The translations under genes and the position numbers were made by a program. Shown one piece after another: positions 3,645-9,541 of a stretch of 64,000 nucleotides of DNA. The stretch's first letter is position 1. The number at the start of each line of letters is the position of its first letter. Below the pieces are notes generated by a model. It ran no database searches and was not told the DNA's origin. It worked only from the letters and a program-made list of their open reading frames with translations. Source of the DNA: Nitrospirota bacterium (GTDB taxonomy: Bacteria; Nitrospirota; Nitrospiria; Nitrospirales; Nitrospiraceae); assembly GCA_963701855.1 (NCBI GenBank), contig CAVPBK010000006.1, forward strand, positions 1,376,001 through 1,440,000, written 5' to 3'.

Positions 3645-4898
3645 TTGTATCGCAAGCTCGTCCTGGACAACGGGGTGCGGGTGGTGACCGAACGGATGCC
3701 GACGCTCAAGTCGGTTACCGTGGGCGTGTGGGTCAACACCGGGTCACGGGACGAGCAGCCTTCCCAGGCAGGGTATTCTCACTTCATCGAGCACATGCTC
3801 TTCAAGGGAACGCGCAAGCGTTCTTCCGCCGAAATCTCTCGCGAAATCGATGTGCTTGGCGGAGAAATGAATGCGTTCACCTCGCGTGAGACGACGACCT
3901 ATTACGTGAAGGTGTTGGATCAGCAACTGGAGCGAGCGCTCGAACTCCTTTCGGATCTGTTCCATCATTCCTGTTTCGCACCCAAAGAAATCCAAAAAGA
4001 AAAACAGGTTGTCCTGGAAGAAATTCGCATGGTCCAGGATGATCCGGAAGATCTCGTGCAAGAGCTTCACATGGGCCAAGTGCTGGGGCGTCATCCGCTT
4101 GGTCGCTCTATTCTAGGCCGAGAGAAGACGATCAGAGGGCTGCGCCGCCAGGATCTGCTGAACTATATAGAAACGCACTACAATCCGGGGCAAACCGTGG
4201 TTTCAATTGCCGGGAACTTTGAGCAGGCCAAGCTTGATCCAATGGTCGCGCGGTATTTTGGCAAGGGCCGAGCCACAAAGTCGATCCACGACAACGGGCG
4301 TCGCGTTCCTGACGTGCATGGCGGTGTCTTGCTGAAGAAGAAACGGTTGGAACAGGTGCATCTCTGTCTCGGGCTCAAAGGCGTGGCGGCCAGCCATCAT
4401 GATCGGTATGCGTTGTATGCGCTCAACAGCGTGTTGGGCGGCAGTGTAAGTTCGAGATTGTTCCAGGAGGTTCGAGAGAAGCGGGGTCTCGTCTATTCGA
4501 TCTATTCCTTCTTGTCCGGTTATTCGGACGGCGGCATGATCACGGTGTACGCGGCGACGAGGCCGAAAGAGGTGGATCGCGTCGTGGATCTTGTCTGCAG
4601 AGAGATCCGGAAGATCGGCATCAAAGGCGTTGAGCAGAAAGAACTTGAGAGGGCAAAAACCCAAATGAAGGGCAGCTTAATGCTGAGCCTGGAGAGTTCG
4701 CACAGCCGTATGAGCAAATTGGCGAAGGACGAGCTCACATACGGACGGCATACGTCGCTGGACGATATGCTGGTTCATATCGATCGTGTGAATGTGGAGC
4801 AGGTTTTCAATGTGGGCCGCCAATTTTTCGTGTTGGACTCCCTCGCGATCACAGGGCTCGGACCTCTCGCCCCACGCAGTCTTCAGGCTTATAGATAA
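3645..4898 (+). CDS. M16 family zinc peptidase
   Basis: Inverted zinc motif HFIEH (HxxEH), NAFTSRE, SSRLFQEVREKRGLVY; common position after pnp. Confidence 0.93.
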   Translation: MYRKLVLDNGVRVVTERMPTLKSVTVGVWVNTGSRDEQPSQAGYSHFIEHMLFKGTRKRSSAEISREIDVLGGEMNAFTSRETTTYYVKVLDQQLERALELLSDLFHHSCFAPKEIQKEKQVVLEEIRMVQDDPEDLVQELHMGQVLGRHPLGRSILGREKTIRGLRRQDLLNYIETHYNPGQTVVSIAGNFEQAKLDPMVARYFGKGRATKSIHDNGRRVPDVHGGVLLKKKRLEQVHLCLGLKGVAASHHDRYALYALNSVLGGSVSSRLFQEVREKRGLVYSIYSFLSGYSDGGMITVYAATRPKEVDRVVDLVCREIRKIGIKGVEQKELERAKTQMKGSLMLSLESSHSRMSKLAKDELTYGRHTSLDDMLVHIDRVNVEQVFNVGRQFFVLDSLAITGLGPLAPRSLQAYR

Positions 4899-4963
4899 GA
4901 GCTTTTGTGAAAGTTTATCAAACGCTGAAAAGTGGATTAAGAAAAAATCGAAGCATCTATCCA

Positions 4964-4976
4964 TAATACATTGATT
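4964..4976 (-). promoter_or_regulatory. Putative IHF-binding site
   Basis: Minus strand AATCAATGTATTA matches WATCAANNNNTTR, in an AT-rich tract upstream of a promoter. Confidence 0.5.
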
Positions 4977-5028
4977 ATTTAATGCATTTCATATCATATT
5001 CGAAACTGTCCACAGGGCAAAGAAATTC

Positions 5029-5057
5029 TTGACACGGTTTCATGGTTTCAGTACCAT
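5029..5057 (+). promoter_or_regulatory. sigma70-type promoter
   Basis: TTGACA (5029-5034), 17 bp spacer, TACCAT (5052-5057). Confidence 0.75.
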
Positions 5058-5242
5058 GAGAAAAATTTTTCATGCGATTCTTGATCGAAGGGACGGAGTA
5101 CGAAGAAATACAAATAGATGTGGCCAAAGTAGCATCACTCATGGCTGCATGATCCCTAAGACTGTTTTATAGCGTTCATCGTCCTTAGAAGTAAGTATCA
5201 TCGGGTATTGTGGTTGCTATTTTTATGAAGGAGGGACTAGGT

Positions 5243-5764
5243 ATGCCAAAGGTCATACTTATCGCCGCCGTGGCAGTGTTTTCTATGCTCGGTTTACTGA
5301 CGGCCCAGTTAGCCGTTGCTGAAGCCCCACCGCCGCCTTCGACTTTGACGGGGCCCACTGACAACATCGTCGGTGGAAAGCCTATGAAGGGAGAAGTCAC
5401 CAAGACTCTCAAAGGTCGGGTATGGTCACAGTGGGCCGATAATCCGGATGGAGAGTTGCTTTTTGGCATTCAATATTGGAACGCTGGGGAGCCTGGTTCA
5501 GGAACTCCAAATGGTCGTTCGTCTTCCGATCTCGACGTGAAGCCTCCGGATCCATTGTTCAGCTGCTGTGGCTGGGGCTTTGTCGGTGGAACGGATAAGA
5601 ACAACCCTTATTCAGGGTGGTACCATGCCGCCACGACCGTCCGGTTGGCGGTAAAGGACAAGGCTCTTATGGACCAGATCATCAAGGCCTCCCAGGAACT
5701 CATCGCGATGGAAGTGAGTTTGGATGGTCGGACGATCACCGGCTTCAAGGTTATTAAGGAATAG
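5243..5764 (+). CDS. Secreted protein of unknown function (possible OB-fold-like beta protein)
   Basis: RBS AAGGAGG before ATG 5243; signal peptide MPKVILIAAVAVFSMLGLLTAQLAVA; Pro-rich linker; no recognised family. Confidence 0.8.
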   Translation: MPKVILIAAVAVFSMLGLLTAQLAVAEAPPPPSTLTGPTDNIVGGKPMKGEVTKTLKGRVWSQWADNPDGELLFGIQYWNAGEPGSGTPNGRSSSDLDVKPPDPLFSCCGWGFVGGTDKNNPYSGWYHAATTVRLAVKDKALMDQIIKASQELIAMEVSLDGRTITGFKVIKE

Positions 5765-5813
5765 ACCTTAATCAGTTTTAACTCTTTCATGTCCTGTTAA
5801 GGAGGACGCGAAC

Positions 5814-6482
5814 ATGAAGTTTCATACGAAAGGCTGGGCTGTGACGGCCGCGGTGGCGCTGGCGGTTTCTGCGGCCTCCACCGCACTGGCGATCGAATCA
5901 TTCCAAGAGCGGTTTGAGTGGGGGGATATGAGCAAGCCGACGACATTGCAGGGTCGCGTGATCGTGCTCGATCCCTACGATGAAGCAGTCTGGATAAACG
6001 TTTCTGTGTTCGGCGGGGCTGCAGAGAGTGGTCTCTTCTGGCAGAAGATCCATCCGGGGAAAAACCTAAAGTTCTACGCAGACAAAGGTGCCTGGGAAGA
6101 ACTCAAGAAGATGGGCCGTCCTCATGCGGGACCAGCTGCCGCGAAGGAAGTGCCACCGTCCAGCACGACTGACCTGATCGAATTTACTGTGACCGAACCG
6201 GAGCAGAATCATCGTGTCATTTCTTCGGTCAAGAAGCTTCCTGAAGTGGCCGGTTCCATGGGGAAGCCTCTGAGCATCTCAGGTCTGCGATTGAAGGAGT
6301 GCGCGGGGAAGAGCGAAATTGAGGCTGGCTGCGCAGCAGCAAAGCAAGGACTCAATACTTCACCGAAGTCTCCTGACGGGGCCGCTTTACCTATGCAGTA
6401 TGATGTGTTGCTTCCAGGTGGTAAGCCCGTTGCAGGGCTAATCCCCTGGACCGCGAAGTACAACCTTGGGTCTGGTCACTGA
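5814..6482 (+). CDS. Secreted protein of unknown function, probable paralog of the upstream gene
   Basis: RBS AAGGAGG; signal peptide ending ALA; TLQGRV motif echoes TLKGRV of the upstream protein. Confidence 0.8.
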   Translation: MKFHTKGWAVTAAVALAVSAASTALAIESFQERFEWGDMSKPTTLQGRVIVLDPYDEAVWINVSVFGGAAESGLFWQKIHPGKNLKFYADKGAWEELKKMGRPHAGPAAAKEVPPSSTTDLIEFTVTEPEQNHRVISSVKKLPEVAGSMGKPLSISGLRLKECAGKSEIEAGCAAAKQGLNTSPKSPDGAALPMQYDVLLPGGKPVAGLIPWTAKYNLGSGH

Positions 6483-6505
6483 CCCGAGAAAGTCAATGAC
6501 TTCTG

Positions 6506-6540
6506 AGGCGGCATTTCCGAAAGGGGATGCCGCCTTTTTA
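6506..6540 (+). terminator. Rho-independent terminator
   Basis: AGGCGGCATTTCC-GAAA-GGGGATGCCGCCT followed by a T run, between convergent genes. Confidence 0.85.
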
Positions 6541-9204
6541 TTTCTCGTGATTGTCTTGCCCGGTTGGACCGATCCGGTGCTGTAGGTCGGCGAGGCGATT
6601 GAGCGCATCGAGCGGAGTCATGGAGAAGAGGTCGATCTGTTTCACTTCTTCGATGATTGGATGTGGTTGGGGGAGCGAGGCACGCGACGGTTCTTTCTCT
6701 GAAGATATTGACATGTCGTCGATGGTGGTATCCGGTCGTTCCAACTGGGCCAGGACTTGTTGAGCTCGGGCAATCACCGTAGAAGGGAGCCCCGCTAGTT
6801 TTGCGACATGAATACCATAGCTGCGATCTGCGCCGCCCGGCACAATTTTACGCAAGAAGACCACGTCTCCATCCCGTTCCTGGACTGCTACGCAATAGTT
6901 TCTGATCCCCTCCCGCAACCCTTCCAGTTGCGTCATTTCGTGATAGTGAGTGGCGAACAGCGTCCTGGCCCCCAGATGCCGGCGGTCTTGGATGTGCTCC
7001 GCAATTGCCCATGCAATGCTCAGTCCATCATAGGTGCTGGTCCCTCGGCCGATCTCATCCAGAAGAATTAAGCTGCGGGAGGTCGCACTGTTCAAAATAT
7101 GCGCCGATTCGATCATCTCCACCATGAAGGTACTCTGTCCAGCAGCCAAGTTGTCCGAGGCCCCCACGCGTGTGAAAATCCGATCGACCAATCCAATGCG
7201 GGCTTCGGTCGCCGGCACAAAACTTCCGATCTGCGCCAACAATACGATCAGCGCGACCTGACGGAGGTAGGTACTCTTTCCAGCCATATTAGGCCCTGTG
7301 AGGATCACAAGCCGGTTGCCCTCACAGTCGAGAGAAGTGTCATTGGGCACGAAGGTCAGATCGTTGCCGAGTTGCTCAACGACAGGATGTCGGCCTTCTC
7401 GAATGAGAATTGTGTGGCTCTCATCGACGAGGGGTTTGACGTAGCGATGTAATGCGGCGGTTTCGGCCAGACCGGCAAGGACGTCGAGCAACGCCACGGT
7501 CTGGGCCATGGCTTGAAGACGAGGCATCTCGTTCGCCAAGCGCCCACACAATTGCTCGAACAGCTCCTGCTCGAGCGCCAACAGTTTAATTTCTGCCCCT
7601 GTGACACGCTCTTCCAGTTCTTTCAGTTCCGGCGTCATGAATCGTTCGGCATTGACCAGCGTCTGCTTGCGAATGTAATCGGGCGGGATGCGGGAGAAGT
7701 GCGTCTTGGTGATTTCGATGTAGTAGCCGAACACCTGATTATAACGAACCTTCAACGAGTCGATTCCCGTTCGCTCCCGTTCTTTGGCCTCCAACGAGGC
7801 GATCCAGCCTTTGCCCTCCGTGCTTGCCTTGCGCAGTTCATCGACCTCGGCATGGTACCCTTCTCGAATCATGCCGCCGTCACGAAGCGACAGCGGGGCA
7901 TCCGCCTTGACGGCCTGCTCAATCGTGTCATGCACGTCGCGGCAGTCGTCCCACGACTCACGGACAGCGGCCAGTAACGAGGCGCCGAACGGTTTGAGAT
8001 GGGACCGTAACTCAGGCAGGGCGCTCACGGACTGTTTCAAGGCGAGTAGTTCGCGAGGTCCCGCGACGCCGAGCGTCACGCGACTGCTCAAACGGGCGAT
8101 GTCTTGTACATCACGGAGCGTAGTCCGGAACGACACGCGTTGTTGAATCCGGTCTTTCAACTCCCCGACCGCATCGAGTCGAGCTTGAATGGCGCTGCGA
8201 TCGAGGAGCGGTCTGATGAGCCAATCGCGTAACAAGCGACTACCCATGGCCGTCGCGGTGCGGTCCAGCACCGACAAAACCGTGGGCTGGTCCTGCCCTG
8301 ATCGGTGCTCACCGGCTCCCAACGGTCGTATGAGTTCGAGATTGCGAATCGTCGCGCTATCCAAATGCATCGCGTCGCTGCTCCAGCGAGTTTGCAGACG
8401 GCGGAGGTGTGCGAGGGAGGCGGTCGGCTGGGTTTCACGAACATATCGCAGGACCGCTCCGGCGGCTCCGATCCCGGCGGTCAAGCCGCGACAGCCGAAT
8501 CCGTCAAGCGAGTGCACCGCAAACTGTGTCTGGAGTAGATGCGTGGCGTCCTTGGGATTGAAGGAGGCCGAGGGTTGTGCGCAGAGGCGTGGCCCACGCA
8601 GGCGAGTCAGGCACAATCCGGCATTCGTAGCGGAATCGGGGTGGAGCAGTTCACGCGGTTCCAGCCTAGCCAGCTCATCCATGAGCTGGAGCTCTGCCCG
8701 TGCTCCCTGGAACTCTGTCATCCAAAACTCCCCGGTGGAGACGTCCAGACAGGCCAGTCCAATGACGGATTGCCCCTTGGCAGATGGGGCCATGGTGTCG
8801 GAGAAGGCGACAGCCGTCAAGAAGTGCGACTCTCCCGGTGCAAGGAATTCAGTATCGATCAGCGTGCCCGGCGTATACAAACGAACGACTTCGCGTCGCA
8901 CGAGACCCTTCGCGAGTTTCGGGTCCTCCACCTGTTCGCAGAGTGCGACGGTTCGCCCAGCCTTGAGGAGCTTTGCGATATAACCTTGAGCCGCATGGTA
9001 GGGCACTCCGCAGAGCGGAACTGGGTTGGGGCTGGATTTGTCGCGAGAGGTGAGGGCAATGGAGAGCAGTTTGGAGGCGATCTGCGCATCCTCGTAAAAC
9101 ATTTCGTAGAAGTCGCCGACGCGGAATAACAGAACGGCATCGGGATAGCCGCGCTTGATCTCGCGGTATTGCCGCATCAAGGGTGAGGCGCCTGCGTCAC
9201 TCAT
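6538..9204 (-). CDS. mutS: DNA mismatch repair protein MutS
   Basis: SPLMRQY, FRVGDFYEMF, TGPNMAGKSTY, DEIGRGTST, SYGIHVAKLAG; start placed at MSDAG. Confidence 0.98.
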   Translation of the reverse strand: MSDAGASPLMRQYREIKRGYPDAVLLFRVGDFYEMFYEDAQIASKLLSIALTSRDKSSPNPVPLCGVPYHAAQGYIAKLLKAGRTVALCEQVEDPKLAKGLVRREVVRLYTPGTLIDTEFLAPGESHFLTAVAFSDTMAPSAKGQSVIGLACLDVSTGEFWMTEFQGARAELQLMDELARLEPRELLHPDSATNAGLCLTRLRGPRLCAQPSASFNPKDATHLLQTQFAVHSLDGFGCRGLTAGIGAAGAVLRYVRETQPTASLAHLRRLQTRWSSDAMHLDSATIRNLELIRPLGAGEHRSGQDQPTVLSVLDRTATAMGSRLLRDWLIRPLLDRSAIQARLDAVGELKDRIQQRVSFRTTLRDVQDIARLSSRVTLGVAGPRELLALKQSVSALPELRSHLKPFGASLLAAVRESWDDCRDVHDTIEQAVKADAPLSLRDGGMIREGYHAEVDELRKASTEGKGWIASLEAKERERTGIDSLKVRYNQVFGYYIEITKTHFSRIPPDYIRKQTLVNAERFMTPELKELEERVTGAEIKLLALEQELFEQLCGRLANEMPRLQAMAQTVALLDVLAGLAETAALHRYVKPLVDESHTILIREGRHPVVEQLGNDLTFVPNDTSLDCEGNRLVILTGPNMAGKSTYLRQVALIVLLAQIGSFVPATEARIGLVDRIFTRVGASDNLAAGQSTFMVEMIESAHILNSATSRSLILLDEIGRGTSTYDGLSIAWAIAEHIQDRRHLGARTLFATHYHEMTQLEGLREGIRNYCVAVQERDGDVVFLRKIVPGGADRSYGIHVAKLAGLPSTVIARAQQVLAQLERPDTTIDDMSISSEKEPSRASLPQPHPIIEEVKQIDLFSMTPLDALNRLADLQHRIGPTGQDNHEK

Positions 9205-9541
9205 TGCGTCGGTCTCGATGTGATTCACCGGTGCGGGTGGGGGATACACGATCGGTGGCTGTATCGAGCGAGACGCGTAGCCGCTCTAAGTCTACTTCGG
9301 CTTCTTGCAGCGCTTTGGTTTTTCTGCGGAGTTCGATACGGCTCCGCACCCATGGAGGGAAAAGAAGAATACCGGAGACGAGTAGCCCAACCGCAAATCC
9401 TGCCAGGATGGGTTTATAGATCGGCGTCGAGGCTTCAAAGAGACCAAAGAAGTACCGGAGCGTGACTTCCTGTTCCTGGTTCTGAAGGAAAAAAGCCAGG
9501 GAGAGGAGCAGCAGAACTCCGACCAAAATCAGTCTAATCAT
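9197..9541 (-). CDS. LapA-like (DUF1049) membrane protein
   Basis: TM helix, FFLQN..V.L.Y motif, second TM helix, then coiled coil. Confidence 0.7.
   Translation of the reverse strand: MIRLILVGVLLLLSLAFFLQNQEQEVTLRYFFGLFEASTPIYKPILAGFAVGLLVSGILLFPPWVRSRIELRRKTKALQEAEVDLERLRVSLDTATDRVSPTRTGESHRDRRNE

Follow-up and report, generated by a model that had tools for sequence, protein, structure and literature searches.

A conserved two-gene operon encoding small exported proteins with predicted OB-type barrels beside mutS in Nitrospirales

Much of the nitrite oxidation that takes place in soils, waters and treatment plants is due to Nitrospira, and the complete ammonia oxidizers (comammox species) among them carry out complete nitrification. 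To our knowledge, how their periplasmic nitrite oxidoreductase (NXR) is anchored, organised and wired into the respiratory chain is still unknown. The window analysed here is a stretch of 64,000 nucleotides from a Nitrospirota bacterium (assembly GCA_963701855.1, contig CAVPBK010000006.1, positions 1,376,001 to 1,440,000), and our subject is a pair of adjacent genes at window positions 5243-6482, whose products we call P1 and P2. An earlier note on this DNA had picked out the pair as an orphan operon of two secreted proteins that look like hidden paralogs. We found that the pair is a conserved and strongly expressed operon of three Nitrospirales families; its products are probably distant paralogues, and we tentatively read them as a periplasmic binding or adaptor pair.

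The locus and its transcription signals

Based on the list of open reading frames (ORFs) and their translations, the P1 ORF (173 residues) lies at 5243-5764 and the P2 ORF (222 residues) at 5814-6482, both on the forward strand. The same-strand genes 5' of the pair are truB, rpsO, pnp and an M16 peptidase gene, and the 3' neighbour, mutS, is convergent on the opposite strand. Each ORF is preceded by the ribosome-binding site AAGGAGG, at 5228-5234 for P1 and at 5799-5805 for P2 (both +), and the identity of the two sites asserted in the earlier note is borne out. The P1 site is the same in all 20 Nitrospiraceae upstream regions that were aligned, and the P2 site is retained in the orthologues listed. 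A consensus scan located a sigma-70-type promoter at 5029-5057 (+), consisting of TTGACA (5029-5034), a 17-nt spacer and TACCAT (5052-5057), with 10 of 12 matches to the consensus. In alignment A5, which comprises the 20 Nitrospiraceae upstream regions and has a mean column identity of 41%, the -35 core CTTGAC and the T/TA/T of the -10 region TTTCAGTACCAT are invariant in all 20 sequences. Considering that the promoter core and the ribosome-binding site are invariant at such a low mean identity, the promoter is conserved and not a chance match.

The distance from the promoter to the P1 start codon implies a 5' untranslated leader of about 180 nt (5058-5242, +), the transcript start being predicted. 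Between P2 and the convergent mutS, an intrinsic-terminator-like hairpin with a T run lies at 6505-6546 (+), in which a 14-pair stem (6505-6536) with 8 GC pairs is followed by a T-rich tail. The pair therefore has its own promoter and terminator, as had been claimed for it, and P1-P2 is a two-gene operon under its own conserved strong promoter. No Rfam family matched the leader or the genes when 4850-6600 was scanned. Alignment A5 further contains an ATTGAT box (4970-4975, +) about 55 nt 5' of the -35 element, with the invariant or nearly invariant columns T89, T90, G91 and T93, which may serve as a second promoter element or as the site of a regulator.

Both products are read as Sec-type exported proteins, in agreement with the two signal-peptide proteins described earlier. 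The signal peptide of P1, at about residues 1-26, consists of a basic tip, a hydrophobic stretch and AVA at 24-26, and that of P2 (residues 1-26) of a basic tip, a hydrophobic stretch and ALA at 24-26, with cleavage at ALA|IE; both were read from the sequence by eye. Each protein is single-copy in the genome of the window.

Occurrence and expression of the pair

P1 and P2 belong to no described family. Pfam and NCBIfam hold no family for either protein, Pfam searched sequence by sequence gave nothing for 39 P1 and 42 P2 orthologues, and a sequence profile search of the PDB returned best E-values of 0.35-1 for the two proteins. Confident matches to characterised unrelated families, which the earlier note had set down as speaking against its proposal, arose in none of Pfam, NCBIfam and the PDB sequences. 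There are 497 homologues of P1, every one annotated as 'hypothetical', and 915 of P2. When the P1 profile was run against 1.84 billion representative proteins, 40 matches were obtained at E up to 0.001, mostly fragments of its own family. Two proteins from this search, P0279 and P0282, were rejected as relatives, being long Ig-like repeat proteins with a chance match to a short Gly-Trp-Tyr stretch. In another protein, P0246 (355 residues), the P1 domain at 231-353 stands behind 230 extra N-terminal residues that have no Pfam match above the cut-off, and P0246 may owe its length to an over-long gene call or else be a rare fused form from a low-GC relative. No longer or fused forms of P2 were found in the searches. 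In the ESM Atlas, P1 retrieved its own clusters only, one of them automatically named 'CHRD', and the best match of P2 was DUF4431 at 0.81; we treat both as leads only. None of the 39 P1 sequences has a Pfam CHRD match at E up to 1. Within the library searched, the locus tags occur in no main text and only in supplementary tables. We found no publication that describes the pair or reports its fold, paralogy or expression rank, while the genes themselves are already annotated and present in supplementary tables.

To describe the distribution of the pair, we used a phylum sample of 301 genomes and an order-wide sample of 251 genomes, with the families labelled f1, f2, f3 and f35. The 76 of the 301 phylum genomes that match P1 (f1 50/50, f2 24/24, f3 1/1) are also those that match P2, with no match in the other 225, so the co-occurrence that had been named as a check on the pair is found. 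In all 76 genomes the two genes are adjacent and on one strand. In the order-wide sample, the P1 profile matched 238 of 251 genomes (f1 111/112, f2 105/112, f3 21/21, f35 0/5), or 212 of 217 when counted among high-quality genomes; the misses outside f35 are one f1 and seven f2 genomes with a completeness of 59-95%. Within f35, P2 and NxrA were each matched in 0 of 5 genomes and the control, pnp, in 5 of 5. Among the 80 named genome records retained, 75 are named Nitrospira, Nitrospiraceae, Nitrospirales or Nitrospirota and five are 'uncultured bacterium'.

In 12 of 13 f1, f2 and f3 genomes checked, the pair is followed by mutS, the thirteenth locus ending at a contig end, and in 11 of the 13 it is preceded by truB-rpsO-pnp-M16. 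The description of the pair as 'orphan' and as 'inserted' does not hold with such neighbours, and the pair is a fixed signature of three Nitrospirales families and a stable part of the chromosome. Its identity between f1 and f2 is about 50%, a housekeeping level similar to that of the neighbours M16, mutS and truB. Two f35 genomes keep truB-rpsO-pnp-M16 followed by HU-like and UvrA-like ORFs, with the pair and mutS both missing from that place. At the loci L070 (G112:C1:1898000-1911500) and L068 (G258:C8:86500-93380), the 6 kb upstream have no match to truB, rpsO, pnp or M16, and mutS is retained. The mutS side of the linkage is more stable than the pnp side.

Expression was taken from published supplementary tables on two cultured species, in which the counterparts of P1 and P2 were matched by position, length and annotation and not by sequence. 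For N. moscoviensis, Table S1 of Mundinger et al. (2019, PMC6606698) gives mean reads per kilobase per million (RPKM) with ranks among 4391 coding sequences. In the available part of this table, NITMOv2_4475 at the P2 position (657 nt) has a mean RPKM of 9262 (rank 6) and NITMOv2_4476 at the P1 position (510 nt) one of 5383 (rank 13), compared with 551 for pnp (rank 338), 299 for ymxG (rank 805) and 114 for mutS (rank 1992). The pair thus stands at 18-31 times the RPKM of the upstream ymxG (PMC6606698), and because of this rise and the conserved promoter, we rejected the possibility that the pair is part of the pnp operon. The values are steady across the time course as tabulated in PMC6606698, and the accessible main text of that paper does not mention NITMOv2_4475 or NITMOv2_4476.

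In N. marina, the proteome values are normalized spectral abundance factors (NSAF) from supplementary file 4 of Bayer et al. (2020, PMC8115632). According to the portion of this file at hand, two hypothetical proteins between the Zn peptidase and MutS, of 179 and 229 residues, have NSAF of 0.42-0.57 and 0.29-0.35, respectively, while GroEL has 0.60-1.00, pnp 0.18-0.20, the Zn peptidase (M16) about 0.03 and MutS about 0.01. The pair therefore reaches roughly half the abundance of GroEL, and among the tabulated proteins named 'cytochrome c' none is above about 0.25 (PMC8115632). Under low oxygen the pair is unchanged, with a fold change of about 1 in the same file. These tables place the counterparts of the pair in two cultured species near the top of transcript and protein abundance, and the strong expression previously claimed from the DNA is confirmed as far as the two sources go. 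The order within the pair differs between the two tables: the RNA of the downstream gene is 1.7 times that of the upstream gene in N. moscoviensis (PMC6606698), whereas the upstream product has the higher NSAF in N. marina (genes 2597406921/22; PMC8115632). This may be due to differential mRNA stability, an internal promoter or a difference between the species.

Predicted fold, paralogy and conserved regions

AlphaFold models were built from alignments of 39 P1 and 42 P2 sequences. In both models the predicted elements follow the order β1-β2-β3-helix-β4-β5, which is that of the OB (oligonucleotide/oligosaccharide-binding) fold. In P1, a variable N-terminal stretch reaches to about residue 52, and residues 53-77 (5399-5473, +) hold the predicted β1 and β2 of the OB-like core (strands 55-64 and 71-75), with a predicted local distance difference test score (pLDDT) of 66-75 for the block. 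Residues 78-131 (5474-5635, +) are a Trp/Tyr/Gly/Asn-rich insert in the β2-β3 loop with the vicinal Cys108-Cys109 (model pLDDT 41-53), and residues 132-173 (5636-5761, +) hold the predicted β3, helix, β4 and β5 (strands 132-137, 155-161 and 164-171; helix 140-150; pLDDT 80-89). In P2, the OB-like core spans residues 42-146 (5937-6251, +) and is modelled with β1 at 43-53, β2 at 58-63, a conserved loop at 64-83, β3 at 84-89, a helix at 91-100, β4 at 121-130 and β5 at 133-141.

When the models were compared with 48,161 PDB representatives using VIA-align, SilF was the top match of both P1 (Z 6.7, rmsd 2.6, 68 residues) and P2 (8bwv_B; Z 8.9, rmsd 1.9, 72 residues), the next match of P2 being 8bhu at Z 8.2. 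Most of the 50 best rows for each model are OB folds, including SilF, SSB, PriB, MCM N-domains, RPA, toxin B subunits, YgiW and IF1. Foldseek likewise placed SilF/CusF at or near the top for both, with E-values of 2e-3 to 2e-2 for P2 and 0.13 for P1. The OB-fold-like β barrels suggested earlier are thus supported by the predicted strand order and by the common best match. Toxin B subunits occur only in lower rows (Z 4.3-6.6) and no gene resembling an A subunit adjoins the pair, so an AB5-toxin B-subunit was rejected. Among the other structural matches, YgiW (1nnx), B. subtilis YobA (4qy7), DUF2500 (3q6c) and PilY2 (3tdq), at Z 4.6-7.1, resemble P1 and P2 in having a signal peptide and a single OB barrel, the latter predicted in P1 and P2. 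Their functions are mostly unknown or stress-related, they rank below SilF and they have no Pfam match to P1 or P2; we know of none among them that forms a conserved paralogous pair or is a top-ranked transcript.

BLASTP detected no similarity between P1 and P2, while hhalign aligned their profiles with P of 0.0014-0.0042 and a probability of 8-18%. The segments it aligned, including residues 132-173 of P1, are the three that had been matched by eye before, now with weak statistics. Neither the 150 column shuffles (maximum 19.4) nor the 150 block shuffles (maximum 22.5) reached the hhalign score of 24.5, and the reversed profile scored 12.3. As such, the suggestion of hidden paralogs is weakly supported by the profile comparison and its 0 of 300 shuffles, and is not supported by BLASTP or by the low hhalign probability. 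We judge it probable that P1 and P2 are distant paralogues. Similarly, the models make it rather likely that both are built on the same five-stranded OB-type barrel of CusF/SilF shape, from which P1 would differ by its loop insert and P2 by its loop, N-terminal peptide and C-terminal motif.

Several results weigh against this assignment and against the functional reading that builds on it. The mean pLDDT is low (58.8 for P1 and 57.9 for P2), with 66-89 in the core elements, and the P1 insert and the P2 tail lie outside the confidently modelled parts. All structural Z scores are below 9, a range in which a shared arrangement alone may explain a match, no Foldseek match reaches E 0.001 for either model, and the hhalign probability of at most 18% is to be counted on the same side.

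The invariant residues of both proteins are clustered in loops. Residues 74-131 of P1 account for 24 of the 41 columns that are invariant in alignment A3, and the 54-residue β2-β3 insert is as conserved as the core. Of the P1 features that had drawn attention, the vicinal cysteines stand in f1 and f2, where Cys108-Cys109 is invariant in 37 of 37 sequences and flanked by invariant Trp and Gly, and fall in f3, where the only sequence aligned has Gly-Gly; His128 is replaced by Asn or Thr in f2. The only invariant sulfur-containing residues of P1 are C108, C109 and M143. In P2, the mature protein starts with the near-invariant and net acidic peptide IE[AS]FQERFEWGD[ML]SK (residues 27-41; 5892-5936, +; isoelectric point 4.4). 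Positions 27-44 are the most constrained part of P2, 14 of 18 being invariant across 42 sequences of 47-91% overall identity. Since synonymous codons in this region vary freely among the orthologues, the constraint acts at the protein level. A variable linker (residues 147-193; 6252-6392, +; pLDDT 46-54) separates the P2 core from a conserved C-terminal motif (residues 194-215; 6393-6458, +; alignments A2 and A4), in which Y196, D197, V198 and P201 are invariant and G208, I210 and P211 nearly so. The C-x9-C pair reported in P2 lies in this linker and is real in f1, to which it is confined; it is absent from f2 (alignment A2). P2 has no invariant Cys, His or Met past its start codon in alignment A2, and several of its orthologues terminate in Gly-His or His-His. 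The mature proteins are of about 15-17 kDa (P1, mildly acidic) and 20-21 kDa (P2, neutral to basic), and in f2 their charges are opposite, -1 to -5 for P1 and +1 to +5 for P2; these calculations took P1 from residue 28. We also predicted a complex of P1 (27-173) and P2 (27-222) from matched 37-row alignments, run without controls, and the three runs gave 0.37, 0.01 and 0.27 against a mark of 0.32, which we count neither for nor against the heterodimer proposed in the earlier note.

Relation to nitrite oxidation and possible function

The genome of the window contains two nxrA copies that are 99% identical (C8:53939-57373 and C6:898189-901623) and an amoA match (C5:108602-109306; PF02461, E 5e-92), which together make up the genotype of a complete ammonia oxidizer. 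In the phylum sample, Nitrospira-type NxrA (69-97% identity) was found in 40 of 50 f1 genomes, 24 of 24 f2 genomes and the single f3 genome, and NxrA matches outside the order have an identity of 42% or less. The pair and Nitrospira-type NxrA therefore co-occur, both being found in f1, f2 and f3 and neither in f35. Ten f1 genomes have no NxrA match, one of them being G195, which is assembled as a single contig. G195 contains NxrB from residue 11 onwards (G195:C1:3456928-3458184), while in G065 and G213 NxrB sits at contig ends, and because NxrB is there, truncated or at contig ends, the missing nxrA of these three genomes is an assembly artefact. The use of NxrA-negative f1 genomes as a natural experiment was therefore rejected for the three that were re-checked. 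More generally, nxrA is often lost or collapsed in assemblies.

According to the available portion of Kop, Koch et al. (2025, PMC12342949), NXR is found in the Nitrospiraceae, UBA8639 (lineage IV) and NS-4, and among the Nitrospirales families UBA2166 alone lacks it. Comparing our pattern with that account, we infer that f1, f2, f3 and f35 are these four families. Table S12 of the same study, as accessible, proposes 140 gene clusters as diagnostic of nitrite-oxidizing Nitrospirales and includes NIDE4124 / NITMOv2_4476, the syntenic counterpart of P1.

Based on these data, we tentatively propose, as a reading that we hold at somewhat less than an even chance, that P1 and P2 have a non-catalytic binding or adaptor function in the periplasm that is tied to a nitrite-oxidizing way of life. 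The two proteins would act jointly in the periplasm as a metal-free, non-catalytic module, in which the OB binding face, formed by the β2-β3 loops, and the N-terminal peptide of P2 would hold a macromolecular partner; this particular mechanism we consider doubtful, if conceivable. A binding role rather than a metal site is suggested by the clustering of the invariant Trp, Tyr, Gly, Asn, Asp, Glu and Arg residues in loops. Joint action is favoured by the adjacency in 76 genomes, the similar protein abundances and the opposite charges in f2. By analogy, the partner might belong to the periplasmic nitrite-oxidizing or electron-transfer machinery, where the pair would have an organising or docking role, although we are sceptical of this assignment as well.

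The analogy is with anammox NXR-T (Kustd1705), which the accessible part of PMC8387239 describes as an exported accessory protein that is specific to its lineage, is expressed at the level of NXR and in most genera has its gene outside the nxr cluster. There it is the tubule-inducing subunit that organises NXR into a superstructure (PMC8387239). NXR-T is a dimeric four-helix-bundle c-type haem protein (PMC8387239), whereas P1 and P2 are predicted to be β barrels and lack a haem motif, so the likeness would be one of function only. In the most specific form of the proposal, a P1-P2 heteromer would be a Nitrospirales-specific, metal-free OB adaptor that docks NXR or a soluble electron carrier and arranges the enzyme at the membrane. 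The invariant acidic N-terminal peptide of P2 would then be the docking element, and the pair would be the Nitrospira counterpart of NXR-T on an unrelated fold. We regard this form as unlikely.

A number of further observations count against a tie to nitrite oxidation. The pair, at C6:1381243-1382479, is neither within nor beside an nxr gene cluster in the genome of the window, one nxrA copy being on another contig and the other about 480 kb off. Since the families concerned form one clade with a single phylogenetic origin, the co-occurrence of the pair with NXR is a correlation from one event, and the same distribution is common to about 140 gene clusters in the part of PMC12342949 at hand. 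The counterpart of P2 is not among the 140 in Table S12 as available (PMC12342949). Because the P1 profile finds essentially only its own family among 1.84 billion proteins, other lineages with a periplasmic NXR have no recognisable P1. Neither translation contains the haem-binding motif CxxCH or a Pfam cytochrome domain, and neither protein has a membrane anchor. The Gly-Gly of the f3 sequence and the origin of the expression values, which come from species other than that of the window, belong on this side too. Considering the remote nxr genes, the lack of a haem motif and the lack of P1 relatives outside its own family, the pair does not appear to be a core NXR subunit. The connection with periplasmic nitrogen or energy metabolism that the earlier note raised is thus retained in so far as the pair co-occurs with the NXR families, and is weakened in that the association is correlative and amounts to one event.

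The alternative that fares best is an envelope structural role, in which the pair would bind peptidoglycan, an outer-membrane glycan or another polymer through its aromatic/Asn/Gly loops and brace the periplasm independently of nitrite oxidation. The abundance is of the order of envelope proteins, and in the tables cited above expression is steady, in N. marina when oxygen is low and in N. moscoviensis throughout the time course. The loops with invariant Trp, Tyr, Asn, Asp and Gly look to us like sugar-binding surfaces, glycan-binding OB folds and the periplasmic YgiW are among the structural matches, and both the housekeeping-level conservation and the lack of linkage to nxr fit such a role. 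However, the 39 P1 and 42 P2 members have no cell-wall-binding Pfam domain, neither a lipobox nor an anchor was seen, and the pair was not found in the NXR-negative f35 or in the other 225 phylum genomes, which need an envelope too. We therefore consider an envelope role unlikely. Even without a relation to NXR, P1 and P2 would represent a new family of periplasmic OB-fold proteins that come in pairs, have the shape of CusF and lack its metal site. The two proteins are a concrete and easily expressed target for structural and interaction work. In metagenomes and metaproteomes, the pair could also be used to mark the lineage of nitrite-oxidizing Nitrospirales.

It is also conceivable, with a rather small probability, that P1 and P2 act separately and that their likeness reflects a common fold, with neither a complex nor shared descent. 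The empty BLASTP comparison and the low hhalign probability are in line with this, as are the ubiquity of OB barrels and the Z scores below 9, which may indicate arrangement only. The unequal RNA levels in N. moscoviensis (PMC6606698) and the presence of the P1 orthologue alone among the 140 clusters of PMC12342949, as far as these tables are available, point the same way. On the other hand, strict adjacency and co-occurrence in all 76 genomes, three segments that align in the same order with a score no shuffle exceeded, and an identical best match among 48,161 PDB chains speak against two unrelated proteins.

The structural matches themselves raise the possibility of a CusF/SilF-like metallochaperone or a periplasmic metal buffer, for example for the copper, molybdate or iron of nitrification enzymes. 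CusF/SilF proteins (PF11604; PDB 8bwv, 8bhu, 8bbz, 1zeq and 2qcp) are small Sec-exported periplasmic proteins, as P1 and P2 are read to be, with a five-stranded OB-type barrel of the kind that the low-confidence models suggest for P1 and P2, and two programs rank them as the best or near-best structural match of both proteins. The P1 vicinal Cys pair and the Gly-His or His-His ends of several P2 orthologues would also suit a metal ligand. The Cu(I)/Ag(I) site of CusF consists of Met and His plus Trp residues. In contrast, P1 and P2 have no sequence similarity to CusF/SilF and no conserved Met/His metal site; the CusF residues have no counterpart, and neither His128 of P1 nor the f1 C-x9-C of P2 is conserved. 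The profile of PF11604 (CusF_Ec) gave no match to P1 or P2 at E up to 10 or to the alignment members at E up to 1, and in a whole-genome scan it had 0 matches in the genome of the window, while the E. coli and Caulobacter controls matched. The pair is also larger than CusF/SilF, with the 54-residue loop insert of P1 and the N-terminal peptide and 80-residue tail of P2, and it consists of what are probably two paralogues in one operon that lies beside pnp, M16 peptidase and mutS genes and not beside cus/sil efflux genes. Finally, the syntenic genes are expressed constitutively and at the top of the transcript ranks in the published tables (PMC6606698), unlike a response to metal stress. A metallochaperone is therefore improbable, and the metal or redox cofactor that had been envisaged for the pair is not supported, given that P2 has no invariant Cys, His or Met and that the P1 His and the P2 Cys pair are not conserved.

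A redox or cofactor-binding protein that uses the P1 vicinal disulfide next to aromatic residues is very improbable: the cysteines and their flanking Trp and Gly are invariant in f1 and f2 and expression is at the level of respiratory proteins in the available tables, but the f3 sequence with Gly-Gly comes from a genome that still has NxrA, motifs for haem, flavin or iron-sulfur binding are absent, Pfam lists no cofactor domain, and P2 has no conserved redox-active residue.

Beyond the pair, the window contains a 114-residue ORF between mutS and tsaE (9197-9541, -) with a hydrophobic N-terminal half. With tblastn, no f2 locus matched this ORF, and matches were obtained in the f1 loci L072-L074 and in the f3 locus L069.

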